From the UHGV virus genome UHGV-0207457: 36,350 nt of DNA, one strand, 5' to 3'. The position numbers and the translations under genes are program-made. The notes beneath the pieces are model-generated. The model did not search any database and was not told where the DNA came from. It saw nothing but the letters and a program-made list of their open reading frames with translations. This DNA is from a virus. Shown piece after piece: positions 138 through 34,317 of the stretch. How positions within the stretch are numbered: position 1 is the stretch's first letter; the number at the start of each line of letters is the position of its first letter.

Positions 138-369
138 CTAAAAATTTTGCAATAAAAAGCCCCATCTCAAGGACAAGGCTTAGAAATCAACTAATTAACA
201 TAGTTTCCAGATCAAAGGGGTTATAATGAAATCCATAAAAGGTGATCTGTTAGCTGGGTGCTGTATATCTAAAATGTTACTTAATTAATATCGTTCTGGT
301 GGTTAGCTTTCATCGCATCCCACCATTTTTGAGTAATCTTCATGCTATTGAATTGCATCATTTCACCTC

Positions 370-1149
370 TTACTCTGCGTCTACCATGTCACATGCAAAT
401 TGAGTGTGTTTATATTCAGAATCAAATTTTGGTTCAATTACTTCAAGACGCATGTCACCTTTTTTGCTTACCCAGATGTTATAAGTGTTAACACGTCCAA
501 TAGCATCCTGTTTGGATTTACCTTCCATTGCGTTTGGATTCTCTTTAGATGGCTTGAGACTTGATTTATAAACATCATACTTGTCGGAATACACAAAAGA
601 TACAGGAACATCGTCTACCATTTTGATCTTAAGTTTACCGCCGTTATTATCAAAAGTTTTGTTTCCGTAGAGTTTATCTTTTACAGCTTCTGTTTCCTCA
701 CCATCGATAACTTTCCATGTAAATTTTGTAGTACATGCGTAAATCGCGGTAACATTCAGTTTCTTTACTTCTTCCTGTTTCGGTTGTTCTTCTTCAATCT
801 TCGCAGAAGTCTCTGAATCGCTCTCTGACGCGGTTTCTTCTTTAGATAATACATTCATCAAGTTTTGGATTTGAGCGTTGTATACAGCCTCCAGTGGCTG
901 AATCTGCCCGATATTGATCATTGTATCACGAACAGTTTTATTCCAGTTGCGTTGCTCTTGTTTAAGAGACGGATCAATCTTAACAGCCTTAACATATACT
1001 TCATGAAGTTTAGAATCCAGTGCGGAGATTGACTCATTAGCACAAATAAACTTCTCTGATTTGGTTATAGCCTTAGTGCAATCAAAGGACGCAGCATCAG
1101 CACCGAAAGCAGTAGCAGAAAGCACGATAGCAGCGATAATGTTTTTCAT
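370..1149 (-). CDS. Secreted DUF1311 (LprI/YecT-like) domain protein with a Cys-bounded C-terminal domain; possible periplasmic lysozyme-inhibitor-like moron
   Basis: ATG at 1149 with AGAGGT Shine-Dalgarno; N-terminal signal peptide MKNIIAAIVLSATAFGADA; DUF1311-type motif C-x-K-A-x-T-x-x-E-x-x-IC ... QRNW; C-terminal ~120 aa bracketed by Cys (YAC...FACD), reminiscent of an MliC-like fold. Confidence 0.65.
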   Translation of the reverse strand: MKNIIAAIVLSATAFGADAASFDCTKAITKSEKFICANESISALDSKLHEVYVKAVKIDPSLKQEQRNWNKTVRDTMINIGQIQPLEAVYNAQIQNLMNVLSKEETASESDSETSAKIEEEQPKQEEVKKLNVTAIYACTTKFTWKVIDGEETEAVKDKLYGNKTFDNNGGKLKIKMVDDVPVSFVYSDKYDVYKSSLKPSKENPNAMEGKSKQDAIGRVNTYNIWVSKKGDMRLEVIEPKFDSEYKHTQFACDMVDAE

Positions 1150-1304
1150 TTTATACCTCTTTTGGTATGGACTGACTTTTAGATGCTTACTTTATTGATT
1201 TTTGATATTTTTTCAATTATTGGGATGAGATTTAGTAATTAAATTAAGAAATTAATGCTTGACAAATTAAAAAGGTACTGTTCCACGGATGAAATAAAGG
1301 GAGT

Positions 1305-1507: not shown

Positions 1508-2062
1508 ATGAAAGAAGAATTAACCCTTACAGAAATTTCCCGTTTATATGGTTATACATTGAATGGTGGCGGTAAGCGATGGTTAGAAAGGGGATTGCCA
1601 TTTAACACCAATACCCGCCGCGTGCCAGCCAAAGAAGGAACAGAATGGGTCTTGAAAAATATTATCAACCCGCTTAAACAAACTTCTATCAAAGAACAAA
1701 TCGATGTAGAGAAATTACGCCGTGAGCGTGCTTTGGCAGATGCAGCCGAACGAGAGAACCAGGAAAAAATGAATCTCCTGATTCCTGTCGGGTATGTAGA
1801 ACAGGAACTAGCGGAATATTGCGGAAAGGTGAAACAGACTATTTTGCAGATCGCCACAATCGACGCTTTAGAAATTCTCGAATCTGCCACTGATCAGAAA
1901 ACATTGAAGAATAAGCTAAGGGAGATCATCGAGCGTCGTTTAAATGAAGTAGGGGACTTGTTCGAAAATGCGGATTTGGGAGAAGACGAGGAAGAAGAAT
2001 TAGCATTAATCGATGAACCGGAACAAGAACCAGAAGAAGACGATGAATTTGATGTGTCTTAA
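1508..2062 (+). CDS. Nu1-like small terminase / DNA-binding packaging protein candidate (184 aa) with acidic C-terminal tail
   Basis: Strong RBS GGAGG; N-terminal HTH-like segment, GGGK motif and EKLRRE motif as in lambda Nu1; acidic tail EDEEEELALIDEPEQEPEEDDEFD. Lies ~6.2 kb from the large terminase, which is atypical. Confidence 0.45.
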   Translation: MKEELTLTEISRLYGYTLNGGGKRWLERGLPFNTNTRRVPAKEGTEWVLKNIINPLKQTSIKEQIDVEKLRRERALADAAERENQEKMNLLIPVGYVEQELAEYCGKVKQTILQIATIDALEILESATDQKTLKNKLREIIERRLNEVGDLFENADLGEDEEEELALIDEPEQEPEEDDEFDVS

Positions 2063-2491: not shown

Positions 2492-2650
2492 TAGTGTAAT
2501 CTGCCTTTTCTCCTTATGGTTATTAACAGGGGATCTTCTTTGAGGATTCCCGATTAAAAGCCATAAAAACACACTTCCAGTACAGTGTTTTCATAGTCAG
2601 GATCTATACAACATAAAAACATAACAAGTATAGATTGAGTATTAATCCTC

Positions 2651-2676
2651 CCGCCCTTCGGGGCGGTTATTTTTCT
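2651..2676 (+). terminator. Intrinsic terminator (UUCG-loop hairpin + T-tract)
   Basis: CCGCCC-TTCG-GGGCGG followed by TTATTTTTC. Confidence 0.6.
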
Positions 2677-2746
2677 GGCTTTAAAGAATAATGTAGCATT
2701 ATGTTCATTATAACCTCATCTTTGTTGTGCAAACCTAAACTTACTA

Positions 2747-2771
2747 GGGACTCTTCGGAGTCCCTTTTTTT
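2747..2771 (+). terminator. Intrinsic terminator (UUCG-loop hairpin + T7 tract), abutting the stop of the convergent 80-aa gene
   Basis: GGGACTC-TTCG-GAGTCCC followed by TTTTTTT. Confidence 0.65.
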
Positions 2772-3012
2772 ATGCAACAATTCGAAGTGTAAGTTTCTTA
2801 TGTTGTGTAGGTTTAGTTTCATTTCGCCACTCAGGGAATACATGATCCATCATAACCGCATTAGTCTCATCAATCAGCTTTAAGGACTTTCTCAACGCCT
2901 TATTATCAGCTTTAAGTGTTTTAATCTCTGATTCCATCGCTACCATTCTTTCTTTCATTTTGGTAATTTCTAACATCAGATTACCCAGAAATTCTTTGTT
3001 TTGATTCATCAT
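2770..3012 (-). CDS. Small coiled-coil protein (80 aa)
   Basis: ATG ATG at 3012/3009 with GGGGTGA RBS; heptad-like MLEITKMKERMVAMESEIKTLKADNKALRKSLKL; last gene of the leftward operon. Confidence 0.5.
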   Translation of the reverse strand: MMNQNKEFLGNLMLEITKMKERMVAMESEIKTLKADNKALRKSLKLIDETNAVMMDHVFPEWRNETKPTQHKKLTLRIVA

Positions 3013-3027
3013 AGATTCACCCCTCTA

Positions 3028-4023
3028 TTAAGCTGCGTATGCGTAGGCGCTGTAGTTGGTGTCGTAGATAGCGTCATGCAGTGCCATCTGTGCTTCGCGG
3101 ATCTCGTCTTCGTTTACTTCAATCTCTTCTTGTTCTTCTTCGGTATCTTCCCAAGTGGTTTTGAATTTAGCCATAAAGTTATTGCGCAGGGATTCAAAGT
3201 TAGTAACAGGTGCGGATTCTTTTTCAACTTCAACCGGAACAACTACCGGAGCAACTTCTTGTTCTACTTCTGCAACAACACCCCAGCGATAGTTAAGGAG
3301 TTCTTCCAGTTCTTCATCAATGGATTTTTCTTCAACTGCTTCAACTTCAACCGCTGCTACTTCGAAAGTGGTTTCCTGTGCTGCCAGTTCAGCTTTCAGA
3401 GATGCGTTTTCAGCTTCCAGTTCAGCAATGCGTGCTTTCAGTGCTTCAACTTCGGAAGATTCAACCACTGCAACTTCTTCTTTAACTTCTTCAACTACTA
3501 CCGGAGAAACTTCTTTCTGTGCTTCTTTTTTGCAGAAGAAGGAGGAAGTAACCTGTAATGCGTGGTTGTAGAAGGAACCGCCTTTAGCGGTGTTAACAGT
3601 ACCAGAAACATCCTTTACAGTGGATTCGGTAGCAACAGTACGGAAGCGTTTTGCGACTTCCTGGGTCTCTACGCCGTATTCGTTACGTTTGCTCTTGTGA
3701 TGCATTACAGCACGGAAGCCGGAAGCAGTTTTAACAACAGCCAGATAGTAAGTTTCATCAGCTTTAACAGCACGAGCGAAGCAATAAACGGATTCACCTT
3801 CTACCAGTGTAGGTTTAACGTGACGTTTGTCGAAACGGTTAGTGATCTGCCATTCAGCACCGTCTTTGATGCCAGCATTCTGACGCATTTCGGTCAGAGT
3901 CTTACCGGATACTACTTCAAAGGATTTGTCTTGTTTGCTTGCTTTACCTTCCATGACGGTAATGTTCAGTTTGCCGTTGGATTTAATAAACAGGTTGAAG
4001 GTGATGCGCTTAGAATTTTTCAT
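3028..4023 (-). CDS. Hypothetical early protein (331 aa): N-terminal globular domain plus strongly acidic E/V/A-rich coiled-coil C-terminal half
   Basis: ATG at 4023 with GGAG RBS; the antisense + strand ORFs here are Phe/Asn/Cys-rich low-complexity, so the - strand is the coding one. Function not recognised. Confidence 0.75.
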   Translation of the reverse strand: MKNSKRITFNLFIKSNGKLNITVMEGKASKQDKSFEVVSGKTLTEMRQNAGIKDGAEWQITNRFDKRHVKPTLVEGESVYCFARAVKADETYYLAVVKTASGFRAVMHHKSKRNEYGVETQEVAKRFRTVATESTVKDVSGTVNTAKGGSFYNHALQVTSSFFCKKEAQKEVSPVVVEEVKEEVAVVESSEVEALKARIAELEAENASLKAELAAQETTFEVAAVEVEAVEEKSIDEELEELLNYRWGVVAEVEQEVAPVVVPVEVEKESAPVTNFESLRNNFMAKFKTTWEDTEEEQEEIEVNEDEIREAQMALHDAIYDTNYSAYAYAA

Positions 4024-6442: not shown

Positions 6443-7258
6443 ATGAATACTGTTACTACTATGAATACTGCTGTTAAAACTGCTTCCGTGTCTCTGGTTG
6501 TTGATAACACCAAACCACTGACCATGTCTTCTCGTCAGATCGCTGAATTTACCGGAAAAGAACACAAAAACGTTAAAGCTGATATTGTTAAGATGTTTAA
6601 AGCACTTGAATTAGATGCGCTGAAATCTCAGCGTATCTATTTTGACCAATATGGACGCGAACAAACCGAATATCACCTTGACGAAGAAATGACGCTGACT
6701 CTTGTTACTGGTTACGATGTTAAACGTCGAATGATTGTTATTCAGGAATGGAAACGACTGAAAGAAGAAAATGAAAAACTGCGTCAGGAACGGTTAGCCG
6801 TTAACCCGTATGCAGACTTTGAAGAAACCGACTGGATCGAACTGGCGTTAAAGAAAACTCGCGAGAACAAGCAACTGATTACTCTACATCATCGCAAATC
6901 CGTAGATAGCCATTCAATGACGCGTTTGTTAGGTGCTAAAAAGGGCGCTACGAAGGTTAAAGAAGCACTGACGGCCTTACGTACTGCCGGATACATTGAG
7001 CGCGTCTATGATGAAAATAACAAGCCGTGTGGGTATGTTGCTAATGATTCCGCGATACCGTTTTGCAGCATGAACGCTCACTATCAACTTTCTTTCACTG
7101 TTGATGTGCTTCCGGTGCTGGTTGAATTGGGTGTTCTTGAAGAAGAACAAAAAGCAGCTTTGACACTGCCTAAACCGAATAACACGATCATGATTCAGAA
7201 TAAAGCGACTATCATGATTCGTCAGAATGTTGGATCGCTAGAACACTTCGGACTGTAA
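6443..7258 (+). CDS. Rha-family phage regulatory protein / antirepressor-like (271 aa)
   Basis: N-terminal TMSSRQIAEFTGKEHKNVKADIVKM matches the Phage_pRha motif; separate C-terminal domain; followed by an intrinsic terminator. Confidence 0.75.
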   Translation: MNTVTTMNTAVKTASVSLVVDNTKPLTMSSRQIAEFTGKEHKNVKADIVKMFKALELDALKSQRIYFDQYGREQTEYHLDEEMTLTLVTGYDVKRRMIVIQEWKRLKEENEKLRQERLAVNPYADFEETDWIELALKKTRENKQLITLHHRKSVDSHSMTRLLGAKKGATKVKEALTALRTAGYIERVYDENNKPCGYVANDSAIPFCSMNAHYQLSFTVDVLPVLVELGVLEEEQKAALTLPKPNNTIMIQNKATIMIRQNVGSLEHFGL

Positions 7259-8293: not shown

Positions 8294-10198
8294 ATGAAAC
8301 TGATTTCTAATAAGGCAAAATTAAAAAAGATTCTCAGAAATATCACTGCTGCAATTCGCCCACCTAAAGCAATGAAACCTAGCGAGTGGGTAGAGGCTAA
8401 CGTAGTGGCTACCGATGGTGTTAAAGCCGGATCTCTAATTAAATTGCATCCCTTCCAACGTGGAATGATGGACGCGATCACCGAAGACCGTAGAAAAATT
8501 GTGCTAAAGTGCTCGGCACAGTTGGGTAAAACTCTTGTGCTAAACGGTATTATCTTTCACAGGATCGCCAGTAACCCTACTAATATCGGTGTTTTGCAAG
8601 CGAACGTTCGAGAATTGAACTCATGGATTGCGGGTAAGGTGAAGCCAGTATTAGAGGCAACCCCAGAATTAAAGGCGATGATCACCGACAAATCAGATCG
8701 CAATGCCGTTAACAACTCATCGATTATTCAGCTTCGTAACGGATCATTCATGTATTTCATGTCGCTGAACAGTCCATCACACTTGCGCGGTAAGACACTG
8801 CCTTTGATTATTCTGGATGAAGTTGATGCGGCTGATGAGTCAGACGAAGGGAACCCGATCCAGCTAGCGGAACAACGCGCAACCACTTTCGGTGATGATG
8901 CAAGGATCGTAATTGCTTCTACTCCAACTTCGCGGGATGGGGCGATAAACCAACAATGGGAACTCTCGGATAAAAGAAAATACCACGTCGTTTGCCAGCA
9001 TTGCGGACACAAACACGTAATGGAATGGAGTAGAGTATTCTTTGATTGGCATGTAATCAATGGTAAATCACTGCCGAATCCAGACACAGCCGTTTACCGT
9101 TGCCCGTCATGTGAAACTGATTGGTCAGAACCAGATCGCCTCCGTGCTGTTGCTCAGGGAGAATGGGTCGCCACCGAACCAAATGCGGAAGTAATCGGTT
9201 TTCATGCTAACCGCCTTATGTCTCCGTTTAGTTCTATCCGTGCGTGTGTGGTGGACTTTGCTGATAGCTACGCGAATATGTCACTGGCAACGTTCTATAA
9301 TGTGGTGCTCGGTGAAACCTTCGATGATCTTAACGAAGACCGCACAGCCGACGAACTGGAAACGCTGAAAACTGACATTAGCTTAGATAATATTCCTGAT
9401 GATGTTCTGGCTCTGGTAGGTGGAGTTGACCAGCAAAAAGACCGTCTGGAATCTACCTTGCTGGGTATCTCTCGTAAGGGGATATGCGTAGTTGATCACC
9501 GATCATTCTATGATGTGAACTGCGAACGCCACGAATCGCCAGCATATGACCAGCTTTATAACTTCCTGAAAGCGAAATTCTATACCCGATCCGGTGAACG
9601 AATCCCGATGCTATCTGCTTTCGTGGACTCATCGAACGGACGAGCTACAAACGTGATCTACCGTTTTTGCACTAGGTGGCAAAACCTATGCGCCATTAAA
9701 GGCGCAAGTAATGCTGATGCTCCAATCCTTCCGGCTAAGGACACAAGAACGGGTGGTTTTACCCTTAAAATTCTGGGCGTAAACAACCTTAAAACGATGA
9801 TCCGTGAAATGATTAACCGGAACTTGAGAGATGGCGATCCTCACACTGTCTTCCAGATTGGCGACGTTCCTGATGACTATTGCGAGCAATTGCTTTCTGA
9901 ACAGTTGAAACGGCAGGGTAATACCACACGTTGGGTAAAAGTTGGTCAGCAACGAAACGAGGCGCTCGACTGCCTGGCTTATTCCTATGCTGCTTCTCGC
10001 CATGTACTCAATAAAATGTCATGGGAAAAACTCGAAGCCATCAAAGATAGTTTGAACCGTGAACCAGAAGAATCCGTAGAAGCTCCTAAATCGCAATCTG
10101 ACGAGAAAATAGAAGAAACTAAGCCAATCACACGACCACAACGTCAAAACATCGCCAGACGCCCAAATAGAGGCCGTGGCTGGGTAACATCGTTCTAA
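8294..10198 (+). CDS. Terminase large subunit, lambda gpA-like (634 aa)
   Basis: Walker A-like SAQLGKT, Walker B ILDEVD, zinc-finger-like CQHCGH...CPSC; size and position ahead of the portal. Confidence 0.85.
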   Translation: MKLISNKAKLKKILRNITAAIRPPKAMKPSEWVEANVVATDGVKAGSLIKLHPFQRGMMDAITEDRRKIVLKCSAQLGKTLVLNGIIFHRIASNPTNIGVLQANVRELNSWIAGKVKPVLEATPELKAMITDKSDRNAVNNSSIIQLRNGSFMYFMSLNSPSHLRGKTLPLIILDEVDAADESDEGNPIQLAEQRATTFGDDARIVIASTPTSRDGAINQQWELSDKRKYHVVCQHCGHKHVMEWSRVFFDWHVINGKSLPNPDTAVYRCPSCETDWSEPDRLRAVAQGEWVATEPNAEVIGFHANRLMSPFSSIRACVVDFADSYANMSLATFYNVVLGETFDDLNEDRTADELETLKTDISLDNIPDDVLALVGGVDQQKDRLESTLLGISRKGICVVDHRSFYDVNCERHESPAYDQLYNFLKAKFYTRSGERIPMLSAFVDSSNGRATNVIYRFCTRWQNLCAIKGASNADAPILPAKDTRTGGFTLKILGVNNLKTMIREMINRNLRDGDPHTVFQIGDVPDDYCEQLLSEQLKRQGNTTRWVKVGQQRNEALDCLAYSYAASRHVLNKMSWEKLEAIKDSLNREPEESVEAPKSQSDEKIEETKPITRPQRQNIARRPNRGRGWVTSF

Positions 10199-10270
10199 TA
10201 ACTCGCCGTCCTTCGGGGCGGCTTACTCCTAAATATTGTTAATCCAATAACAATTAAATAAGGGGTGATT

Positions 10271-10765
10271 ATGAGTTTAGAACTAATTCCCTTAGTAATT
10301 CGTAAAGGCGAAAAAATCACGCTGGCGAATGAAGAGGGTGTAACAATTCAGGTAGGAAATAGTAAAGGTATCATTTATCAGGTTGATGATACTCCGGCTA
10401 ATCACGAGATTAAAACCTTAGATTTTGCCGAGGGTAAATATACCATCGTAACCACTTTGGAAGAAGAACTGGTATCAATGCAGGAATTAACTGTATTGCC
10501 AGTATTCGCCAAACAATCCAAAAAAGAACATCTGCGGGAGACTATCGCCAAAATCGAGCAAGTTATTTTCGCCCGTTTATCTGGGGACGAAGCCGCATTA
10601 TCTCAAATGACCGTGAAAGGGAATACTTTCGCCTATGAGTCATTAGGTGTTCTCCAGCAATTAAAGACTGATTATGAACGTCAACTGTCTAAATTAATTC
10701 AAGCCGAACGACGTAAACAGGGAATTAGCCCGATTAAAAATATCAAATTACGTCTTACGCGATAA
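10271..10765 (+). CDS. Head morphogenesis / head-tail joining protein (164 aa), in the position of lambda gpW
   Basis: ATG at 10271 with AGGGG RBS (track start 10265 is GTG); between terminase and portal. Confidence 0.55.
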   Translation: MSLELIPLVIRKGEKITLANEEGVTIQVGNSKGIIYQVDDTPANHEIKTLDFAEGKYTIVTTLEEELVSMQELTVLPVFAKQSKKEHLRETIAKIEQVIFARLSGDEAALSQMTVKGNTFAYESLGVLQQLKTDYERQLSKLIQAERRKQGISPIKNIKLRLTR

Positions 10766-10775
10766 GGGGTAAATC

Positions 10776-12287
10776 ATGTTTAATCTTTTTCGACGCAATA
10801 AGGCGGTAGAAACTCCAGTTAAAACTAATCACCGCCAGCAACAACAAAAAATCTTTATCGACAAACAAGTAGAAAAATTCCAGAAAGATTTGTCTAAGCG
10901 TTCTTTGGGCTTAGTTGGTGATCGCATTGATGGATCGCTTCAACAAGATACTATCACAGGAACCTTCAATAAGGCTCTCAAATCGAATGGTAAGCGCCTT
11001 TATGACCAGGGTCGTACTCTGGCCTTAAACACTTCCGTAGGCAGTCGCTACACGCAATACATCACCGATATGGTGGTAGGTACTGGCCTAGATCCGAAGC
11101 CGTCAGTTGTTAAATCAAATGGAAAACTTGATAGCGCACTGAATAAGCAGATCGAGAATGCTTTCTGGAAGTGGGCGCAGAATGCTAAACGCTTCTCCCG
11201 CAATGGTCGTTTTAACTTCCGTGAACTGCTGGTAATGGCTGAACGTGAGCGCGTTATGGGTGGTGAGTGCTTCATCGTTTTAACCAAAGAAAACAATGAG
11301 TTAAATGTTTCTATCCTGTCTGCTGATAAGTGCGACTGGTCGCTAAACCGTGAAGTAAGCAAAGACCGTGCGATATATCAAGGTGTGGAGTATGACGTAG
11401 AGACGATGAAGCCCGTAGCATACTGGTTTCGTAAAATCAACCTACTGACTCAGACTTACACAGGTGATAACTATCGCGTAGATGCTTCGCAAGTATGCCA
11501 TTATTATCAACCACTTGCGGCTGAATCTCTGCGTGGTGTGACTGACTTCCTGCCAGTGATTAAGGATATCGCACATCAAGACGCATTCCGCGAAGCTGTA
11601 CTGGTCCAGAAACGAATTTCAGCTAGTAGCATGGCGTTCATCGAGCGTCCGAAAGATTCTGGTGACGATTTTGATACTGGTGAAGATGATGAACAATATC
11701 AAGCGCCGGAAGTTATTCACGATTTCGCGCCGGGTACTATTCAGGAATTGCCGGAAGGGGCAACGATCAAGAGTATTCAATCCACGCAAAGCGGCGATGA
11801 TTTCAATTCATTTAACGCTGGTATGTTCACTAGCATAGCAATGGGTCTTGGCGTGTTCAATCAGGGCTTAACTGGCGATACTAGCCAAATAAATTACAGC
11901 GCTGCACGCTACGGCGAATTACTTCAAAGAACGCGCGTTAAAGCACTGCAAAACAAATTAATTGAAACAGTGGTATTGCCAATTTTCGAAGCGTATCTGC
12001 GTCATTATTCCGCGCGTGGTATTGTTCCGATTCGTATTACTGCAATTCCGCATATTATCGATAACACTACTATTATTCGTCCGCGTTTTGAATCCGTCGA
12101 TCCATTTAAAGACGTAAGCGCCGAGATTGCTTTAATTGATAACGGACTTAAATCACGTACTGCCGTTATATTGGAACGTGGTGATGATCCTGAAAAAGTA
12201 TTCTCAGAGATTCAAGCCGAAAAAAGCGCACTAAATATTATCGTTGATGGCGAGGGTGAAGAAAAAAATTCCCCAGCCGATCCCTAA
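10776..12287 (+). CDS. Portal protein (503 aa), lambda gpB-like
   Basis: Size, acidic C-terminus and position between terminase and the protease-capsid gene; RBS GGGG. Confidence 0.75.
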   Translation: MFNLFRRNKAVETPVKTNHRQQQQKIFIDKQVEKFQKDLSKRSLGLVGDRIDGSLQQDTITGTFNKALKSNGKRLYDQGRTLALNTSVGSRYTQYITDMVVGTGLDPKPSVVKSNGKLDSALNKQIENAFWKWAQNAKRFSRNGRFNFRELLVMAERERVMGGECFIVLTKENNELNVSILSADKCDWSLNREVSKDRAIYQGVEYDVETMKPVAYWFRKINLLTQTYTGDNYRVDASQVCHYYQPLAAESLRGVTDFLPVIKDIAHQDAFREAVLVQKRISASSMAFIERPKDSGDDFDTGEDDEQYQAPEVIHDFAPGTIQELPEGATIKSIQSTQSGDDFNSFNAGMFTSIAMGLGVFNQGLTGDTSQINYSAARYGELLQRTRVKALQNKLIETVVLPIFEAYLRHYSARGIVPIRITAIPHIIDNTTIIRPRFESVDPFKDVSAEIALIDNGLKSRTAVILERGDDPEKVFSEIQAEKSALNIIVDGEGEEKNSPADP

Positions 12288-12333
12288 TAACCAACGGGGG
12301 GCGCAATGCCCCCAATTAATTAAAGGTGATTAA

Positions 12334-14340
12334 ATGCTTAAATTTCGCCGCGAACTTAACGGTTACGGTGGAGTTATTAACGAAGGGCATAACGATCAAT
12401 ACGAATTTGAAATTGCTTTCTCCAGTGAACAGCCTTATCAGCGCCAATTCTGGGATGAGCAAAATCAAGAAATGGTGGTATTAGATGAAATTCTGGTACA
12501 TACACCGGAAGCGGTTGATCTGTCTCGTCTGAATAATAACGCTCCGTTGCTGTTTAATCATAATTTCGATAATCATTTAGGTGTCGTTTGTAACGCTCGA
12601 ATCGATGCGGATAAAGTAGGCCGTGCGACCGTTAGATTCTCTAAGCATGGCACTTTGGCTAATGATATTCGTAATAAAGTCATTGAAGGTACGATGGAAA
12701 AAATTTCTGTCGGTTATGACATTAAAGAATATCACATCGATTATGCCAAAGGACAATTGATTGTTACTAAGTTTGTTCCTTTCGAATTAAGTTTTGTTAC
12801 GGTCCCGGCGGACGATTCGGTCGGTTTAAATCGCTCTCTAAATACTATCACAGTTAATTTGGAGGCTAAACGCGATATGACTAAAGAACAAATCGAAGAA
12901 ATCAAAGAAGAACAAGAACCCGCTCAGGTTGAAGAAACTCCGGTAGAAGAAAATAAAGAATCGGAAGTTGAAGAAACTCAAGAGCGCCAAGTTGAAGAGA
13001 ATAAAGAAGATGAAAATCTCGAAGACGGAAAAGACGCTGAACATCCTGAAAGTGTTGATGATGATAGTTCAACTGTTCGGGAAACAGAAGAAGTAAAAGA
13101 AGAACGTGAAGCCGTTCCGGTTGAAGAAGAAAAAACCGAGGAAGTGGCTGAACGTTCCGAAGAAGACGAATTAGAAATCCGCGAGATCGCGCGGGAACTA
13201 AATATTGACGACGAAGAATTAAAACGCGCATTGGCAATTAAAGACATGACGCCGGAAGCATTCCGCACTAAGGCACTAAATAACATTACCAATGCTCAAC
13301 GTATTAACGAACAAATTAATAAGGAACAAATCATGGAAAAAACTTTCGATCTTAATAACGTAATCCGCTCCCTGGTAGATGGCGACGTGCTCGGCGCTAA
13401 CGAAGCTGAATATTCCGCTATGGCTGCTGGTGCTGCAATGCAGCGTGGTCGTGCTGCTCGCGGTGGCTCTGTATTCGTTCCGGCTGCTGCTCTGCGTGCT
13501 GCTTCCGAAGGTAACACCAAAGCTACTCTGACCGCTGTTACTGATGAAAAACTGCTGACTGAATCCTACATCGAAATGCTGTTGCCTCAGAGTGTTTTAG
13601 GCCGCCTCGGTGTAACCGTTCTGTCTGGCCTGACTTCCCCGATCGCTGTTCCGAAAATGACCGCTTCCAGCGTCGAAGCCTTTGGTTTTGTTGACGAAAA
13701 TGGGGCTGCCCCCGAGTCACATGCGGAATTTTCGAACGTGAAAATGGCTCCTAAGACGTTCGCTGGTGGGAATCCGATCAGCAGAGCTAGCATAAAGCAA
13801 GTTCCCGGCATCGCTACCCTGATCACTGATCACATTAACAAATCTGTTCGGATCAAACTGGAACAACTGATTCTGTCTGACAAAGACAACGAGCGCGGTC
13901 CGGCTGGCCTGGTTAAGCAACTGGTAGACGCGGGTCGCGTTACTAAGAAAGCCGCTTTCTCTTACAAAGACTTCCTGAAAGAAATTGCAGCACTGACCGA
14001 CGCTGGCGTTCCTGCTCAGGCGATCAAGTTTGCGATGAGCGGTGCAACTGCTGCTGAACTGGAATCTACCCTGAAAGATAACGGCGTTTCCGGTTATATC
14101 ATCGAAAACGGCAAACTGGCTGGTTACGAAGTAGTTACTTCTGGTGTTATCCCGGCAGACCACATCGTTCTGGGCGCGTTTGACGGTATCACCATTGGTG
14201 AGTGGGGCGGTCTTGAACTGGATATGGACGACACTACCTACCGCGCACAGTCTGCTATCGTTCCGCGAATCTGGGTAGACCTGGATTATGTTGTTACTCA
14301 GCCGGAAGCTCTGAAAGTTCTTCACATCTCCGCTGAATGA
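12334..14340 (+). CDS. Fused prohead protease - scaffold-like acidic linker - HK97-fold major capsid protein (668 aa); ends in TGA
   Basis: N-terminal ~170 aa carry prohead-protease-like motifs (LLFNHNFDNHLG, ISVGY, ELSFVTVPAD); residues ~180-300 are Glu-rich; C-terminal ~340 aa is capsid-like. Confidence 0.85.
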   Translation: MLKFRRELNGYGGVINEGHNDQYEFEIAFSSEQPYQRQFWDEQNQEMVVLDEILVHTPEAVDLSRLNNNAPLLFNHNFDNHLGVVCNARIDADKVGRATVRFSKHGTLANDIRNKVIEGTMEKISVGYDIKEYHIDYAKGQLIVTKFVPFELSFVTVPADDSVGLNRSLNTITVNLEAKRDMTKEQIEEIKEEQEPAQVEETPVEENKESEVEETQERQVEENKEDENLEDGKDAEHPESVDDDSSTVRETEEVKEEREAVPVEEEKTEEVAERSEEDELEIREIARELNIDDEELKRALAIKDMTPEAFRTKALNNITNAQRINEQINKEQIMEKTFDLNNVIRSLVDGDVLGANEAEYSAMAAGAAMQRGRAARGGSVFVPAAALRAASEGNTKATLTAVTDEKLLTESYIEMLLPQSVLGRLGVTVLSGLTSPIAVPKMTASSVEAFGFVDENGAAPESHAEFSNVKMAPKTFAGGNPISRASIKQVPGIATLITDHINKSVRIKLEQLILSDKDNERGPAGLVKQLVDAGRVTKKAAFSYKDFLKEIAALTDAGVPAQAIKFAMSGATAAELESTLKDNGVSGYIIENGKLAGYEVVTSGVIPADHIVLGAFDGITIGEWGGLELDMDDTTYRAQSAIVPRIWVDLDYVVTQPEALKVLHISAE

Positions 14341-31266: not shown

Positions 31267-31620
31267 ATGTTAAGCAAACATTTTTCTCGCAAGGAATTTA
31301 AATGTAAATGCGGAAAATGTGATTATGATACAATCGACGCTGAATTACTGGTAATTCTTGAGGATGTACGAGAGCACTTCGGTAAACCAGTGATTATTAA
31401 CAGTGGCAACCGTTGCCCGACTCATAACAAGAATGTAGGCGGGGCAGCCAATAGCTATCACGTTCGAGGCCGTGCGGCTGACATTGTTATCAAGGGTGTC
31501 TCACCTGATATTGTTCATGCTTATCTTGATGGGAAATATCCTACTCAATACGGCTTGGGAAAATATAAAACATTTACGCATATCGATTCCAGATCAAAAA
31601 AATCACGGTGGAATGGATAA
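31267..31620 (+). CDS. Endolysin, zinc metallopeptidase M15 family (117 aa)
   Basis: RBS GGGGG; SGNRCPTHNKNVGGAANSYHVRGRAADI matches the M15 motif (SGYR..HN..VGG..S.H..G.A.D); followed by a terminator. Confidence 0.8.
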   Translation: MLSKHFSRKEFKCKCGKCDYDTIDAELLVILEDVREHFGKPVIINSGNRCPTHNKNVGGAANSYHVRGRAADIVIKGVSPDIVHAYLDGKYPTQYGLGKYKTFTHIDSRSKKSRWNG

Positions 31621-32154: not shown

Positions 32155-33834
32155 TTAAATTCCAAATTCTTGTAATGGACCTGGTATTTCTTCTTCTGGT
32201 TTCCAGTTCTTATCTGTCAGCATGTCTAAACATGGATGCAGAACAAGCCCGTTACTCTCCAGAATCTGCCTATCATTGATAGTCTTCAAATCAACGAAGA
32301 TCCGGCCTTTCCTCGGTCCTCTTGAATTTTCTATTACAACTCTCTGGGTCTTGCCATCGATGTATTCCAGTACAAACAAGTTTTTGTACTTGTCAATCCT
32401 GCTGCACCCGATCCGTTTTAGAGCTTGCTTAATCTTAAACCGGACCTTAATGCGATCCTCGTTGTAAACATCTTCTAAATCAAATTCTGCGAGCTTCTCC
32501 CAGCCTTGAGAGTCAACAGAATACATTTCCTCTTCTGCCATCTTAAGTTGATTGTAGAGTGTTTCACGCTCGCTATTGAGGGTAGTAATCTGATCGGCTA
32601 GCTCCTTCGTTGCTCCTGTCATAGCAGAAAGGGTAATCAGGTTATCAATCTTGCGTGATATTTCATCAATCTGTACTTTCAAAGCCGGAACCGGATTAGC
32701 CTTATCTTCAGCAATCCAGATTTTATCAGCCAGCAATTGCAATACAGCTTTCTCTAATTGGTCGCCGCGAAAACTCCAGTTTGTATGCACACATTCAATA
32801 CGACTAGAGCGCATTGCATCGCATGAATAACGATATTGGTTAGGCCGTCTGTTTGTTCCTTTCACCTTAACCATAGCGGAACCGCAATGTTCACATTTCA
32901 ATAGACCAACACCACTAAGCAAGGGAATAGGTTTAACTTCTTCTTTGTCTCCAAAGTTACATGCTCTAACACCAATGCTTTTCTTAAGGTGATAAAACTC
33001 AGCGTCATCTAGCACACGAGGATAATAATCCTTTAACTCATACTTAACGCCATCTACAGAGATTTCCTTGATACCAATCAAAGCGCGGGTATGGAACAAC
33101 CTTTCAATCATTGCCCGTGACCAGTTTGAATGCCTCTTGTGACTTGCGGCTGGTGGTGGTGTGTATGTCGCGTTAAGGTGATCCAGTATCTCGGCGGTTG
33201 ACCGTCCATTCCTGCGTAATTCCACAACTTCCTGAACAATAGGGAAGAAGACCGGATGAGGAAGCACATAACCAGATGTGGTATCAGTCCACCACATATT
33301 CTTTCCAATTTCCTCGATTGCAACAGCCGGATTTTGTGGATTTTCTTGATGAGCTTTAATCTTAATCAGTGCGCTTGAGTTAGTACGATTGCGCTTAGTC
33401 TGGCTTTCCTCATTACCACGGATGAATAAAAGGATGGAGAACATCAGGTCCATCGGGTTAGCGGTAACAGTATCAAGCGAGTAGATCTTGTTATCCATGC
33501 CAGTAACAATGGTTATCCCCCTACGGATGATTGAAAGGAATAACTCCTGCGCACTGACAATATCGGCACGGGATAAACGGTCCAAGTTTTCGATGAATAG
33601 CCAGCTACCAACAGGAACGGATCTACCTATTGCATCAAGGAAACGAGATAGCGCCCCTGTTTTGGAGTTAGCACCCTTAAACGCAGATACACCCAGATCC
33701 TGATAATCATTTACCAGTTCAAGGTCATACTTTACCGCAATCTCTCTAGCCATCCTGATTTGTCGTTCATAACTCGAACCATCATTCTGACGCATAGACG
33801 AGAAGCGAATATACGAATACAGTTTAGTTTTCAT
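32155..33834 (-). CDS. Large serine recombinase (integrase), 559 aa
   Basis: N-terminal resolvase catalytic domain (YSYIRFSSMRQ ... SYERQ ... ENLDRLSR), central recombinase domain, zinc-ribbon-like CEHCGS...YRYSC, C-terminal coiled coil; ATG at 33834 (track start 33849 is TTG). Confidence 0.85.
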   Translation of the reverse strand: MKTKLYSYIRFSSMRQNDGSSYERQIRMAREIAVKYDLELVNDYQDLGVSAFKGANSKTGALSRFLDAIGRSVPVGSWLFIENLDRLSRADIVSAQELFLSIIRRGITIVTGMDNKIYSLDTVTANPMDLMFSILLFIRGNEESQTKRNRTNSSALIKIKAHQENPQNPAVAIEEIGKNMWWTDTTSGYVLPHPVFFPIVQEVVELRRNGRSTAEILDHLNATYTPPPAASHKRHSNWSRAMIERLFHTRALIGIKEISVDGVKYELKDYYPRVLDDAEFYHLKKSIGVRACNFGDKEEVKPIPLLSGVGLLKCEHCGSAMVKVKGTNRRPNQYRYSCDAMRSSRIECVHTNWSFRGDQLEKAVLQLLADKIWIAEDKANPVPALKVQIDEISRKIDNLITLSAMTGATKELADQITTLNSERETLYNQLKMAEEEMYSVDSQGWEKLAEFDLEDVYNEDRIKVRFKIKQALKRIGCSRIDKYKNLFVLEYIDGKTQRVVIENSRGPRKGRIFVDLKTINDRQILESNGLVLHPCLDMLTDKNWKPEEEIPGPLQEFGI

Positions 33835-33897
33835 ACCATTTCCAAACAAAAACGCCCCTACCGCGTATTATAACGATAGGGGCTAGGTGATTAAAGA

Positions 33898-34317
33898 TTA
33901 AAGAATTTCACGGCAGCTAATCAGGGAATAAGACGTATCACCTTTTTTAACATCAAATATAGGCGCGCCATCTACAGAATGCAGATATTTGATGTAAGAC
34001 TTACCATCTTCGGAACCATAATATTCTTCTTTCTCGTTCTTATCTTCTTTCAGTTTCGGGCTTTTGATTGTTTTATCAAATACCGGATCGTTGAAAGCAA
34101 ATTGACTATTATCATCATTCACTCGAACCTTTACACCGATAAAACCACGGTATTTGCCAGACGGCGCATGATAATAACGGTCGCCATCACTCAGGTAGCG
34201 TGTATCATCTCCTTTATATTCGAAGTAGGAATTGCACACATAATAGGTATAGGTATTAGCATTCGCAGCACCAACCAAACCCAGAGCAAGAACAACACCA
34301 GCGATAATCTTTTTCAT
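33898..34317 (-). CDS. Secreted hypothetical protein (139 aa)
   Basis: RBS AGGAAA; signal peptide MKKIIAGVVLALGLVGAANA; two Cys; AT-rich cargo region. Confidence 0.6.
   Translation of the reverse strand: MKKIIAGVVLALGLVGAANANTYTYYVCNSYFEYKGDDTRYLSDGDRYYHAPSGKYRGFIGVKVRVNDDNSQFAFNDPVFDKTIKSPKLKEDKNEKEEYYGSEDGKSYIKYLHSVDGAPIFDVKKGDTSYSLISCREIL

Follow-up and report, generated by a model that had tools for sequence, protein, structure and literature searches.

Why does an Escherichia coli prophage carry a gene for an exported protein at its very edge, and where did that gene come from? The question is raised by UHGV virus genome UHGV-0207457, a stretch of 36,350 nucleotides (nt) that is referred to here as the window and to which all positions apply. 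The window contains an E. coli prophage, about 35.3 kb long, that interrupts the antitoxin gene hicB. Its outermost left gene is a real open reading frame (ORF) of 259 amino acids (aa) on the minus strand, which starts with an ATG at 1149 and stops with a TAA at 370–372 (Table 1). The product is a predicted soluble, Sec-exported periplasmic protein in which a DUF1311 module is joined by an acidic tether to a disulfide-clamped β-barrel. A preliminary description of the locus had recognized the exported DUF1311 protein and suggested that it might inhibit lysozyme. It missed the most informative features of the gene, which are its origin in the Krischvirus group and the cassette-like hypervariability of its barrel.

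The identification as an exported DUF1311-type protein holds. Residues 1–19 (MKNIIAAIVLSATAFGADA, followed by AS) have the n-h-c layout and AXA site of a substrate for Sec and signal peptidase I (SPase-I), and no lipobox was found when the 259-aa protein was searched for one. Residues 24–76 match the Pfam family PF07007 (LprI/DUF1311) with 24.7 bits (E = 3.2e-5) against a curated cut-off of 22. The margin over this gathering threshold is small, and the match covers the first two thirds of the profile (positions 1–71 of 106); homologues in other phages score 22.4–26.4 bits. As far as its sequence goes, the protein is a bona fide, though marginal, member of PF07007. Over its full length it falls into phrog_14799 of PHROGs, a family of unknown function (8.5e-114), while a search of NCBIfam with the 259-aa protein gave no match. 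The existing NCBI PGAP name of the product is “lysozyme inhibitor LprI family protein” (WP_097739977).

The protein has four cysteines, two of which (24 and 36) lie in the DUF1311 part, while the other two (139 and 253) bracket the C-terminal domain, as the preliminary description had it. Among 22 family members, C24, C36 and C253 never change and C139 is kept in at least 90%, and residues 1–125 are almost invariant throughout. The linker stretch of residues 102–131 has an isoelectric point of 4.4. The length of the linker changes through E/K/P/Q/V-rich repeat units (EEQPKQEEKVVEEPKVE...), which may set the reach between the modules. Such repeats recall the periplasm-spanning Pro/Glu/Lys linkers of proteins such as TonB.

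AlphaFold2 modelling with an alignment of the 22 family sequences yielded a four-helix N-terminal domain at residues 30–105, with a predicted local distance difference test score (pLDDT) of about 80, followed by a disordered linker at residues 105–129 (pLDDT below 50) and an all-β C-terminal domain. When the C-terminal domain was modelled alone, the pLDDT rose to 90.9 with a predicted template modelling score of 0.84, and eight main strands were formed. The modelled barrel comprises about 125 aa and makes a long excursion after strand 1. Cys139 is located on the first strand in the model and Cys253 on the last.

Whether this barrel is the MliC/PliC domain of a lysozyme inhibitor has a divided answer. 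DUF1311 was recovered by profile searches, but MliC was not: PF09864 (MliC) and other lysozyme-inhibitor families gave no match at E ≤ 10, either with the full protein or with 15 barrel alleles. SGxxY, or more fully SxSGAxY, is the motif by which MliC/PliC inhibitors contact lysozyme and plug its active site (PMC8334348), and a regular-expression search found both SGxxY and YxxxTKG to be absent from all 22 family members. In Foldseek, the C-terminal domain gave weak matches only (E ~2e-3), to the barrels of NHBA, fHbp and TbpB. A fold comparison included the inhibitor-type barrels of PhiA, PliC and ACP among the matches, with PhiA giving the lowest root-mean-square deviation and the highest coverage. 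A structure search of BFVD returned only the homologue from phage RB49 and unannotated small phage barrels. The PDB yielded no sequence match to the protein, and a search for solved relatives with a five-sequence DUF1311 profile found only spurious, designed TPR-like repeats. Other matches to the barrel in profile searches (aRib, FMN_bind and similar repeat proteins) were rejected as unrelated according to Pfam.

By shape, the barrel is thus possibly an MliC/PliC domain, while by every sequence criterion it is not. It is not demonstrably MliC/PliC: the fold is compatible, the homology unproven and the functional motif missing. Canonical MliC/PliC inhibition of c-type lysozyme is not predicted for the 259-aa protein. 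What is left of the suggested lysozyme inhibitor is the DUF1311 module, the export and a compatible barrel shape; the lack of an MliC match and of SGxxY, and a fold match that is not specific, stand against it. The authors of a study of ScwA, a periplasmic LprI-domain protein that confers no lysozyme resistance, pointed out that the “lysozyme inhibitor” label of PF07007 is without direct experimental support and ascribed the inhibition by LprI to its MliC domain (PMC7933661). The database name of the phage product over-states what is known, as it rests on a domain without demonstrated lysozyme inhibition, and the part that does resemble an inhibitor, the barrel, is without the functional motif of true inhibitors. 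The name is probably misleading.

Krischvirus ancestry and exchange of the barrel

The origin of the gene is recorded in its DNA. Nucleotides 769–1155, which include the ribosome-binding site (RBS), the signal peptide, the DUF1311 module and most of the linker, are 95–97% identical by blastn to a hypothetical gene in 59 Krischvirus genomes. These are RB49-like, virulent phages of the Straboviridae. The full-length proteins of the window and Krischvirus are 55–67% identical, the similarity collapsing in the linker. The RB49 homologue, RB49p262 (= ORF260c), was flagged in 2006 as a marginal DUF1311 match (PMC1524935). In Krischvirus, the gene lies among small early genes in the early region, between the topoisomerase gene 52 and the holin gene t, within a few kb of t and rIIB; the distal tail-fibre gene is about 3 kb away. 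A promoter candidate of the sigma-70 type, TTGACA-17-TAAGAT, is found directly upstream of the RB49 gene.

Homology to Krischvirus resumes right past the stop codon for about 80 nt, where the temperate phage retains a truncated remnant of the adjacent gene, RB49p261. The retention of this truncated neighbour indicates that a T4-like genome was the donor and the temperate phage the recipient. The stump can be read as a molecular fossil of the transfer, and it could also be a second homology arm for cassette exchange. Judged by these alignments, the hicB-integrated temperate phage captured its gene from the Krischvirus pool. Base composition does not discriminate as evidence of foreign origin (36–40% GC in the gene vs 41.8% in the prophage). 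The transfer documents very recent gene flow (synonymous divergence, dS, of about 0.13–0.19) from virulent Straboviridae into a temperate prophage.

The second half of the gene has a different history. Prophages in hicB in which both flanks are 97–98% identical bear different barrels (the window type, the PD23 type and the PI7 type), and the breakpoints are sharp, at about 768 and 359 in the window. Outside the window’s own class, the C-terminal domains are 12–44% identical. The same classes are found in Krischvirus: the PI7/P0015 class is also present in phage JSE, and the window-type class in P0002–P0004. The closest barrel allele to that of the window, P0004, lies in the Krischvirus synteny rIIB-52-...-t-gp37.

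Substitution rates were estimated by the Nei–Gojobori method, taking codons 1–101 as the N-terminal module. In this module, dS is 0.06–0.23, the nonsynonymous divergence (dN) is 0–0.019 and dN/dS is 0.03–0.2, even when pairs of prophage and Krischvirus sequences are included, and the module is therefore young and under purifying selection. In the barrel, dS between allele classes is saturated (1.3 to >2.7, or incalculable) and dN is 0.37–1.8, while within a class, dN/dS is 0.34 (window vs EC42405) or 0.20 (PI7 vs JSE). The low ratios within classes indicate that the barrel is functional rather than junk, and in combination with the saturated dS between classes they indicate that the alleles are old functional lineages. 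On these estimates, old barrel lineages have repeatedly been recombined onto a homogeneous N-terminal module, with no recent burst of substitutions and no decay. The pattern of divergence looks like the signature of an arms race or of balancing selection. A binding-loop hot spot within the barrel was considered and rejected (per-column entropy of 1.31 in strands vs 1.30 in non-strand columns, p = 0.79).

The DUF1311 module has also been joined to other partners. In a distant T4-like contig, a diverged module (about 45–55% identity to that of the window) at the same locus is fused to an unrelated helical C-terminal domain, and in Klebsiella, Aeromonas and lambdoid phages a signal peptide and DUF1311 are fused to other C-terminal domains. 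DUF1311 fusions with unrelated C-terminal domains are widespread in the T4-like phages of Klebsiella and Aeromonas, and in the lambdoid phage ev099 the fusion gene lies between the recombination genes and xis-int. In the Krischvirus early cluster that carries the DUF1311 gene, a small ORF has a weak Tad2-like (anti-Thoeris) Pfam match (metagenomic contig L012, 8511–8759; the cluster is also present in L013 and L014), which hints that this cluster may be a gathering place for counter-defence or host-takeover genes.

Function of the protein and competing explanations

The current thinking is that the protein may act stoichiometrically in the periplasm, where it would bind or inhibit an envelope-acting protein arriving from outside, the target depending on the barrel allele. 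This reading is put forward tentatively and by analogy. The most plausible target would be a peptidoglycan (PG)-degrading enzyme, and the candidates are the tail-associated hydrolase of a superinfecting phage, a cell-wall effector of a type VI secretion system (T6SS) and possibly lysozyme. The DUF1311 module would provide a conserved contact or anchor and the barrel allele the target specificity, and in this way an infected cell or a lysogen would acquire an exclusion or immunity function. The suggestion of an inhibitor follows from three precedents: the PliC/PhiA-like shape of the barrel, the Sp protein of phage T4 and the T6SS immunity proteins, among which proteins made of a signal peptide and DUF1311 serve as cognate or orphan immunity to lysozyme-like or PG-hydrolase effectors that act in the periplasm (PMC9796082, PMC8867033, PMC12981562, PMC12135965).

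Several observations weigh against the proposal of a periplasmic inhibitor. There is no adjacent effector gene, the neighbours being the hicB stump and a gene resembling that of the small terminase subunit (terS), and the PADLOC defence models gave no match to the 259-aa protein. The fold match of the barrel is non-specific, with AlkL, Cap15, OmpW, TbpB and NHBA scoring the same or higher than the inhibitor-type barrels, and a barrel profile run against 1.84 billion representative proteins found its own gene family only. The variability of the barrel is even over strands and loops, with no obvious focus on a binding loop. PhiA, which is without SGxxY, did not inhibit hen egg-white lysozyme or SagA in vitro (PMC8334348), and ScwA is a regulator of the cell’s own hydrolases, not a block to those from outside (PMC7933661).

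A more far-reaching version of the proposal, which is doubtful, is that the gene is an allele-swapping immunity or exclusion module in a single gene pool to which the prophages and the virulent T4-like phages of one host both have access. With the DUF1311 half, which is constant, and the RB49p261 stump as homology arms, an infecting Krischvirus and a resident prophage would trade barrels, each allele would be directed against a different incoming envelope attacker, and the whole would make up an undescribed class of programmable periplasmic inhibitors. No description was found in the papers retrieved of the combination of DUF1311, an acidic tether and a hypervariable barrel with a clamp disulfide, shared between virulent and temperate phages and with exchange of barrel cassettes.

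The alternative that survives best, although it is unlikely, is that the protein is a ScwA-like modulator of host lytic transglycosylases or endopeptidases that serves the phage by adjusting envelope remodelling, the timing of lysis or lysis inhibition. ScwA, which is soluble and periplasmic and has disulfides as well as DUF1311, raises MltD and causes lysis when overproduced (PMC7933661), and the proximity of the Krischvirus gene to holin t and rIIB would suit such a role. However, if the targets were conserved host PG enzymes, the presence of several ancient barrel alleles in one host species would be left unexplained, and the domain order differs in that the LprI domain of ScwA is C-terminal (PMC7933661).

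It is improbable that the protein is a canonical lysozyme inhibitor, that is, a divergent MliC/PliC barrel that plugs the active site of a c-type or phage lysozyme in the manner of Mycobacterium tuberculosis LprI. The order of DUF1311 and a small barrel is that of LprI (PMC7933661), and the protein is predicted to be periplasmic with a clamp disulfide like that of PhiA. The failure of PF09864 to match any of the 15 alleles and the absence of both motifs from the whole family argue the other way, and such extreme allelic diversity is hard to square with one conserved target, c-type lysozyme.

Superinfection exclusion through receptor masking has a similarly slim chance. In this case, the barrel would act on the periplasmic face of an outer-membrane receptor or on an inner-membrane DNA-entry component, with alleles for different receptors, which would be in keeping with the moron position, the predicted export, the allelic diversity and the nearby tail-fibre gene in Krischvirus. 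However, Cor and Llp, which are proteins of this type, are lipoproteins, and the lipobox is missing here. The barrel allele also does not co-vary with the tip of the Krischvirus gp37: JSE has the tip class of TB34, SAP and GoldenSnicker and a different allele, and GEC-3S and JK32 show the same mismatch. The RB49-type allele is found together with tips that are 54–100% identical to that of RB49. Since the alleles do not follow the tip, and since a prophage whose tail genes are unrelated carries these allele classes too, masking matched to the phage’s own receptor is unlikely.

There is likewise little probability that the gene is passenger DNA, carried along when the prophage recombined, illegitimately or by homology, with an infecting Krischvirus, and with no role in the lysogen. 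The truncated Krischvirus neighbour did come along with it, the promoter match is weak (9/12) and the gene is carried by only 26 of 5426 complete E. coli genomes. However, the ORF is an intact, annotated coding sequence (CDS) in all 26, dN/dS is below 1 in both halves, and three or more classes of barrel allele have been installed at this one position in the prophage, which implies repeated, selected exchange. Least probable is a barrel of the lipocalin, YceI or AlkL type that carries or sequesters an envelope lipid, small molecule or signal on a DUF1311 module, as ligand pockets are normally conserved, whereas nearly all positions vary here apart from two Cys and one Gly, and there is no Pfam lipocalin or YceI signal.

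If a periplasmic inhibitor is indeed the role of the protein, it would be a modular defence or exclusion factor with a cassette-exchanged specificity domain. It would also offer a tractable system for the study of how phages and lysogens block the envelope-degrading enzymes of competitors, since five or more natural barrel alleles could be compared on a single constant module.

Prophage setting and coordinates

The first ~110 nt of the window are the 5′ sequence of hicB, which is present in 5323 of the 5426 complete E. coli genomes, and the 3′ part of hicB resumes at about 35380. The gene is annotated as truncated in every lysogen examined. The toxin gene hicA is intact upstream of the disrupted hicB, a notable situation for a toxin gene beside a broken antitoxin gene. 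Near the right end is a gene for a 564-aa large serine recombinase (32155–33849, minus strand), which is likely the integrase.

The DUF1311 gene had been placed on the opposite strand immediately to the left of a cos-like/Nu1 region, at the spot where lambda carries bor. The strand and the terS-like neighbour are right; the correction is that no other gene of the prophage lies farther out, the junction with hicB being about 250 bp away. Inward of it is a gap of 358 nt, followed by a 184-aa ORF (1508–2062, plus strand) that matches PHROG 57, terminase small subunit (E = 1.6e-10). The gene for a gpA-type large terminase subunit (terL; 8294–10198, plus strand) is located about 6 kb beyond. The gap between the two is occupied by minus-strand ORFs, a Rha-family regulator (6443–7258) and unknown genes, an unusual layout for a packaging module. 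The endolysin (31267–31620) is an M15 peptidase, as had been stated (Peptidase_M15_3, E = 8.8e-28).

The earlier view of the gene as a moron agrees with its place at the prophage edge, the opposite strand, promoter- and terminator-like signals of its own and its foreign origin. The promoter candidate is specific to the prophage, because the RB49 homology begins just 6 nt 5′ of the ATG. The terminator scan found 5 terminator-like sites where 1.0 was expected. From these signals, the DUF1311 gene is probably an independently signalled accessory gene (moron) at the end of the prophage.

A megablast search with the region of terL, portal and major capsid protein (8294–14340) gave no match among 50,697 deposited phage genomes. 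It seems that no member of this lineage of temperate phages has yet been isolated or described, though the lineage is present in ~26 sequenced E. coli strains. A second exported protein is encoded at the opposite end of the prophage (33898–34317, minus strand; 139 aa), with a signal peptide and a Cys near both ends of the mature form. It belongs to no Pfam or PHROG family and has a weak PADLOC match to PDC-M63A only (E = 0.005). The idea that it might be a stand-alone copy of the barrel was rejected (hhalign probability 0.6%).

Table 1. Features of the prophage ends and of the DUF1311 gene, in window coordinates.
Feature	Position	Strand	Basis
Left prophage/hicB junction, core TTGGCAA	106–112	.	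Sequence reading
Intrinsic-terminator-like hairpin, 10-pair stem followed by TTTTTATT, 3′ of the gene and just inside the prophage end	157–181	-	Scan
26-codon truncated remnant (MMQFNSMKITQKWWDAMKANHQNDIN, then stop) of RB49p261 (95 aa), RBS included	281–361	-	DNA alignment; blastn 82.7% over 81 nt
Stretch exchanged among prophages that are otherwise 97–98% identical, and among Krischvirus genomes; one breakpoint in the linker, the other shortly after the stop codon	359–768	-	blastn vs L002–L005
CDS, 259 aa + stop, DUF1311-linker-barrel protein with predicted secretion	370–1149	-	ORF list; PHROG 14799; PGAP WP_097739977
C-terminal eight-stranded β-barrel, aa 132–259, Cys139–Cys253 clamp, hypervariable “cassette” part	373–756	-	
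Acidic E/K/S/Q-rich disordered linker, aa 106–131, allele-variable length via EEQPKQEEKVVEEPKVE-type repeats	757–834	-	pLDDT <50 at residues 105–129; alignment indels
DUF1311/LprI helical module, aa 20–105, Cys24 + Cys36, near-invariant “constant” part	835–1092	-	PF07007; four helices in AlphaFold2; 22-sequence alignment
Signal peptide, aa 1–19, predicted SPase-I cleavage between ADA and AS, without lipobox	1093–1149	-	Sequence; AlphaFold2 pLDDT <50 at residues 1–18
Shine–Dalgarno GAGG, 6 nt 5′ of the ATG	1156–1159	-	Sequence reading
Sigma-70-like promoter candidate TTGAAA-16-TAAAGT, 9/12, ~40 nt 5′ of the ATG	1189–1216	-	Consensus match only
Right prophage/hicB junction, recurring core TTGGCAA	35374–35380	.	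Sequence reading

Comparison with known systems

The protein that comes first to mind is M. tuberculosis LprI (Rv1541c), a lipoprotein composed of DUF1311 and MliC that inhibits lysozyme (Sethi et al. 2016, as cited in PMC7933661). As far as LprI is portrayed there, both proteins are exported, with PF07007 at the N-terminus and a small β-barrel after it. However, LprI is a lipoprotein with a recognizable MliC domain (PF09864), whereas the phage protein has an SPase-I site and neither an MliC match nor SGxxY; it is also phage-borne, with a long acidic linker and a hypervariable barrel. The resemblance to LprI is one of architecture at most.

In its modelled shape, the barrel can be compared with Brucella abortus PhiA and the PliC, MliC and ACP barrels (PDB 7DPY, 4MIR, 3OE3 and 6GQ4), which are soluble, periplasmic, flattened eight-stranded antiparallel barrels, although it matches the barrels of OmpW, AlkL, Cap15 or TbpB no less well. 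PhiA, a periplasmic barrel of the MliC/PliC fold, has a single stabilizing disulfide (C76–C154), as predicted for the phage barrel, and is also without SGxxY (PMC8334348). Sequence identity between the phage barrel and these proteins is just 12–16%, and the phage barrel differs from them in being fused to DUF1311.

The DUF1311 half finds its counterparts elsewhere. Salmonella ScwA, which is also soluble and periplasmic, has DUF1311 together with structural disulfides and is connected with cell-wall hydrolases, although it is a chromosomally encoded, all-helical protein of 275 aa with the LprI domain at its C-terminus (PMC7933661). T6SS immunity proteins such as Etsi4 of enterohaemorrhagic E. 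coli, SED_RS06230 of Salmonella Dublin and those of orphan immunity genes in Pantoea have the same combination of a Sec signal peptide and PF07007 in the periplasm, and have been proposed or shown to neutralize incoming lysozyme-like or PG-hydrolase toxins (PMC12135965, PMC12981562, PMC9796082, PMC8867033). They differ in that they are single-domain proteins of ~146 aa encoded beside their effector, whereas the phage protein has a linker and a barrel and no effector next to it.

Among phage proteins, the candidate functional analogue is Sp of T4, which is comparable as a small exported protein of a T4-type phage, made from the early region with an early-type promoter candidate. Sp (spackle) and Imm are early superinfection-exclusion proteins of T4, Sp being a periplasmic inhibitor of the gp5 tail lysozyme. 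No sequence relationship between Sp and the 259-aa protein was detected, and no Sp homologue was found at the RB49 61-41 locus or in the 34 kb of RB49 examined, which is weak evidence. Klebsiella phage Marfa (L007) has an annotated spackle gene (144–425) and a DUF1311 gene (2501–3259) within 2.5 kb of each other, near the primase gene 61, and its DUF1311 protein has a signal peptide and a helical C-terminal domain. Since Marfa bears both genes, the two are not simple substitutes for each other.

Finally, the arrangement of the gene is reminiscent of that of lambda bor and other lysogenic-conversion morons, in that an accessory gene next to the packaging module is encoded on the opposite strand and has promoter- and terminator-like signals of its own. 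Bor is an outer-membrane lipoprotein for serum resistance. The DUF1311 gene differs from bor in that it lies at the prophage terminus by the attachment site and is derived from a virulent phage.

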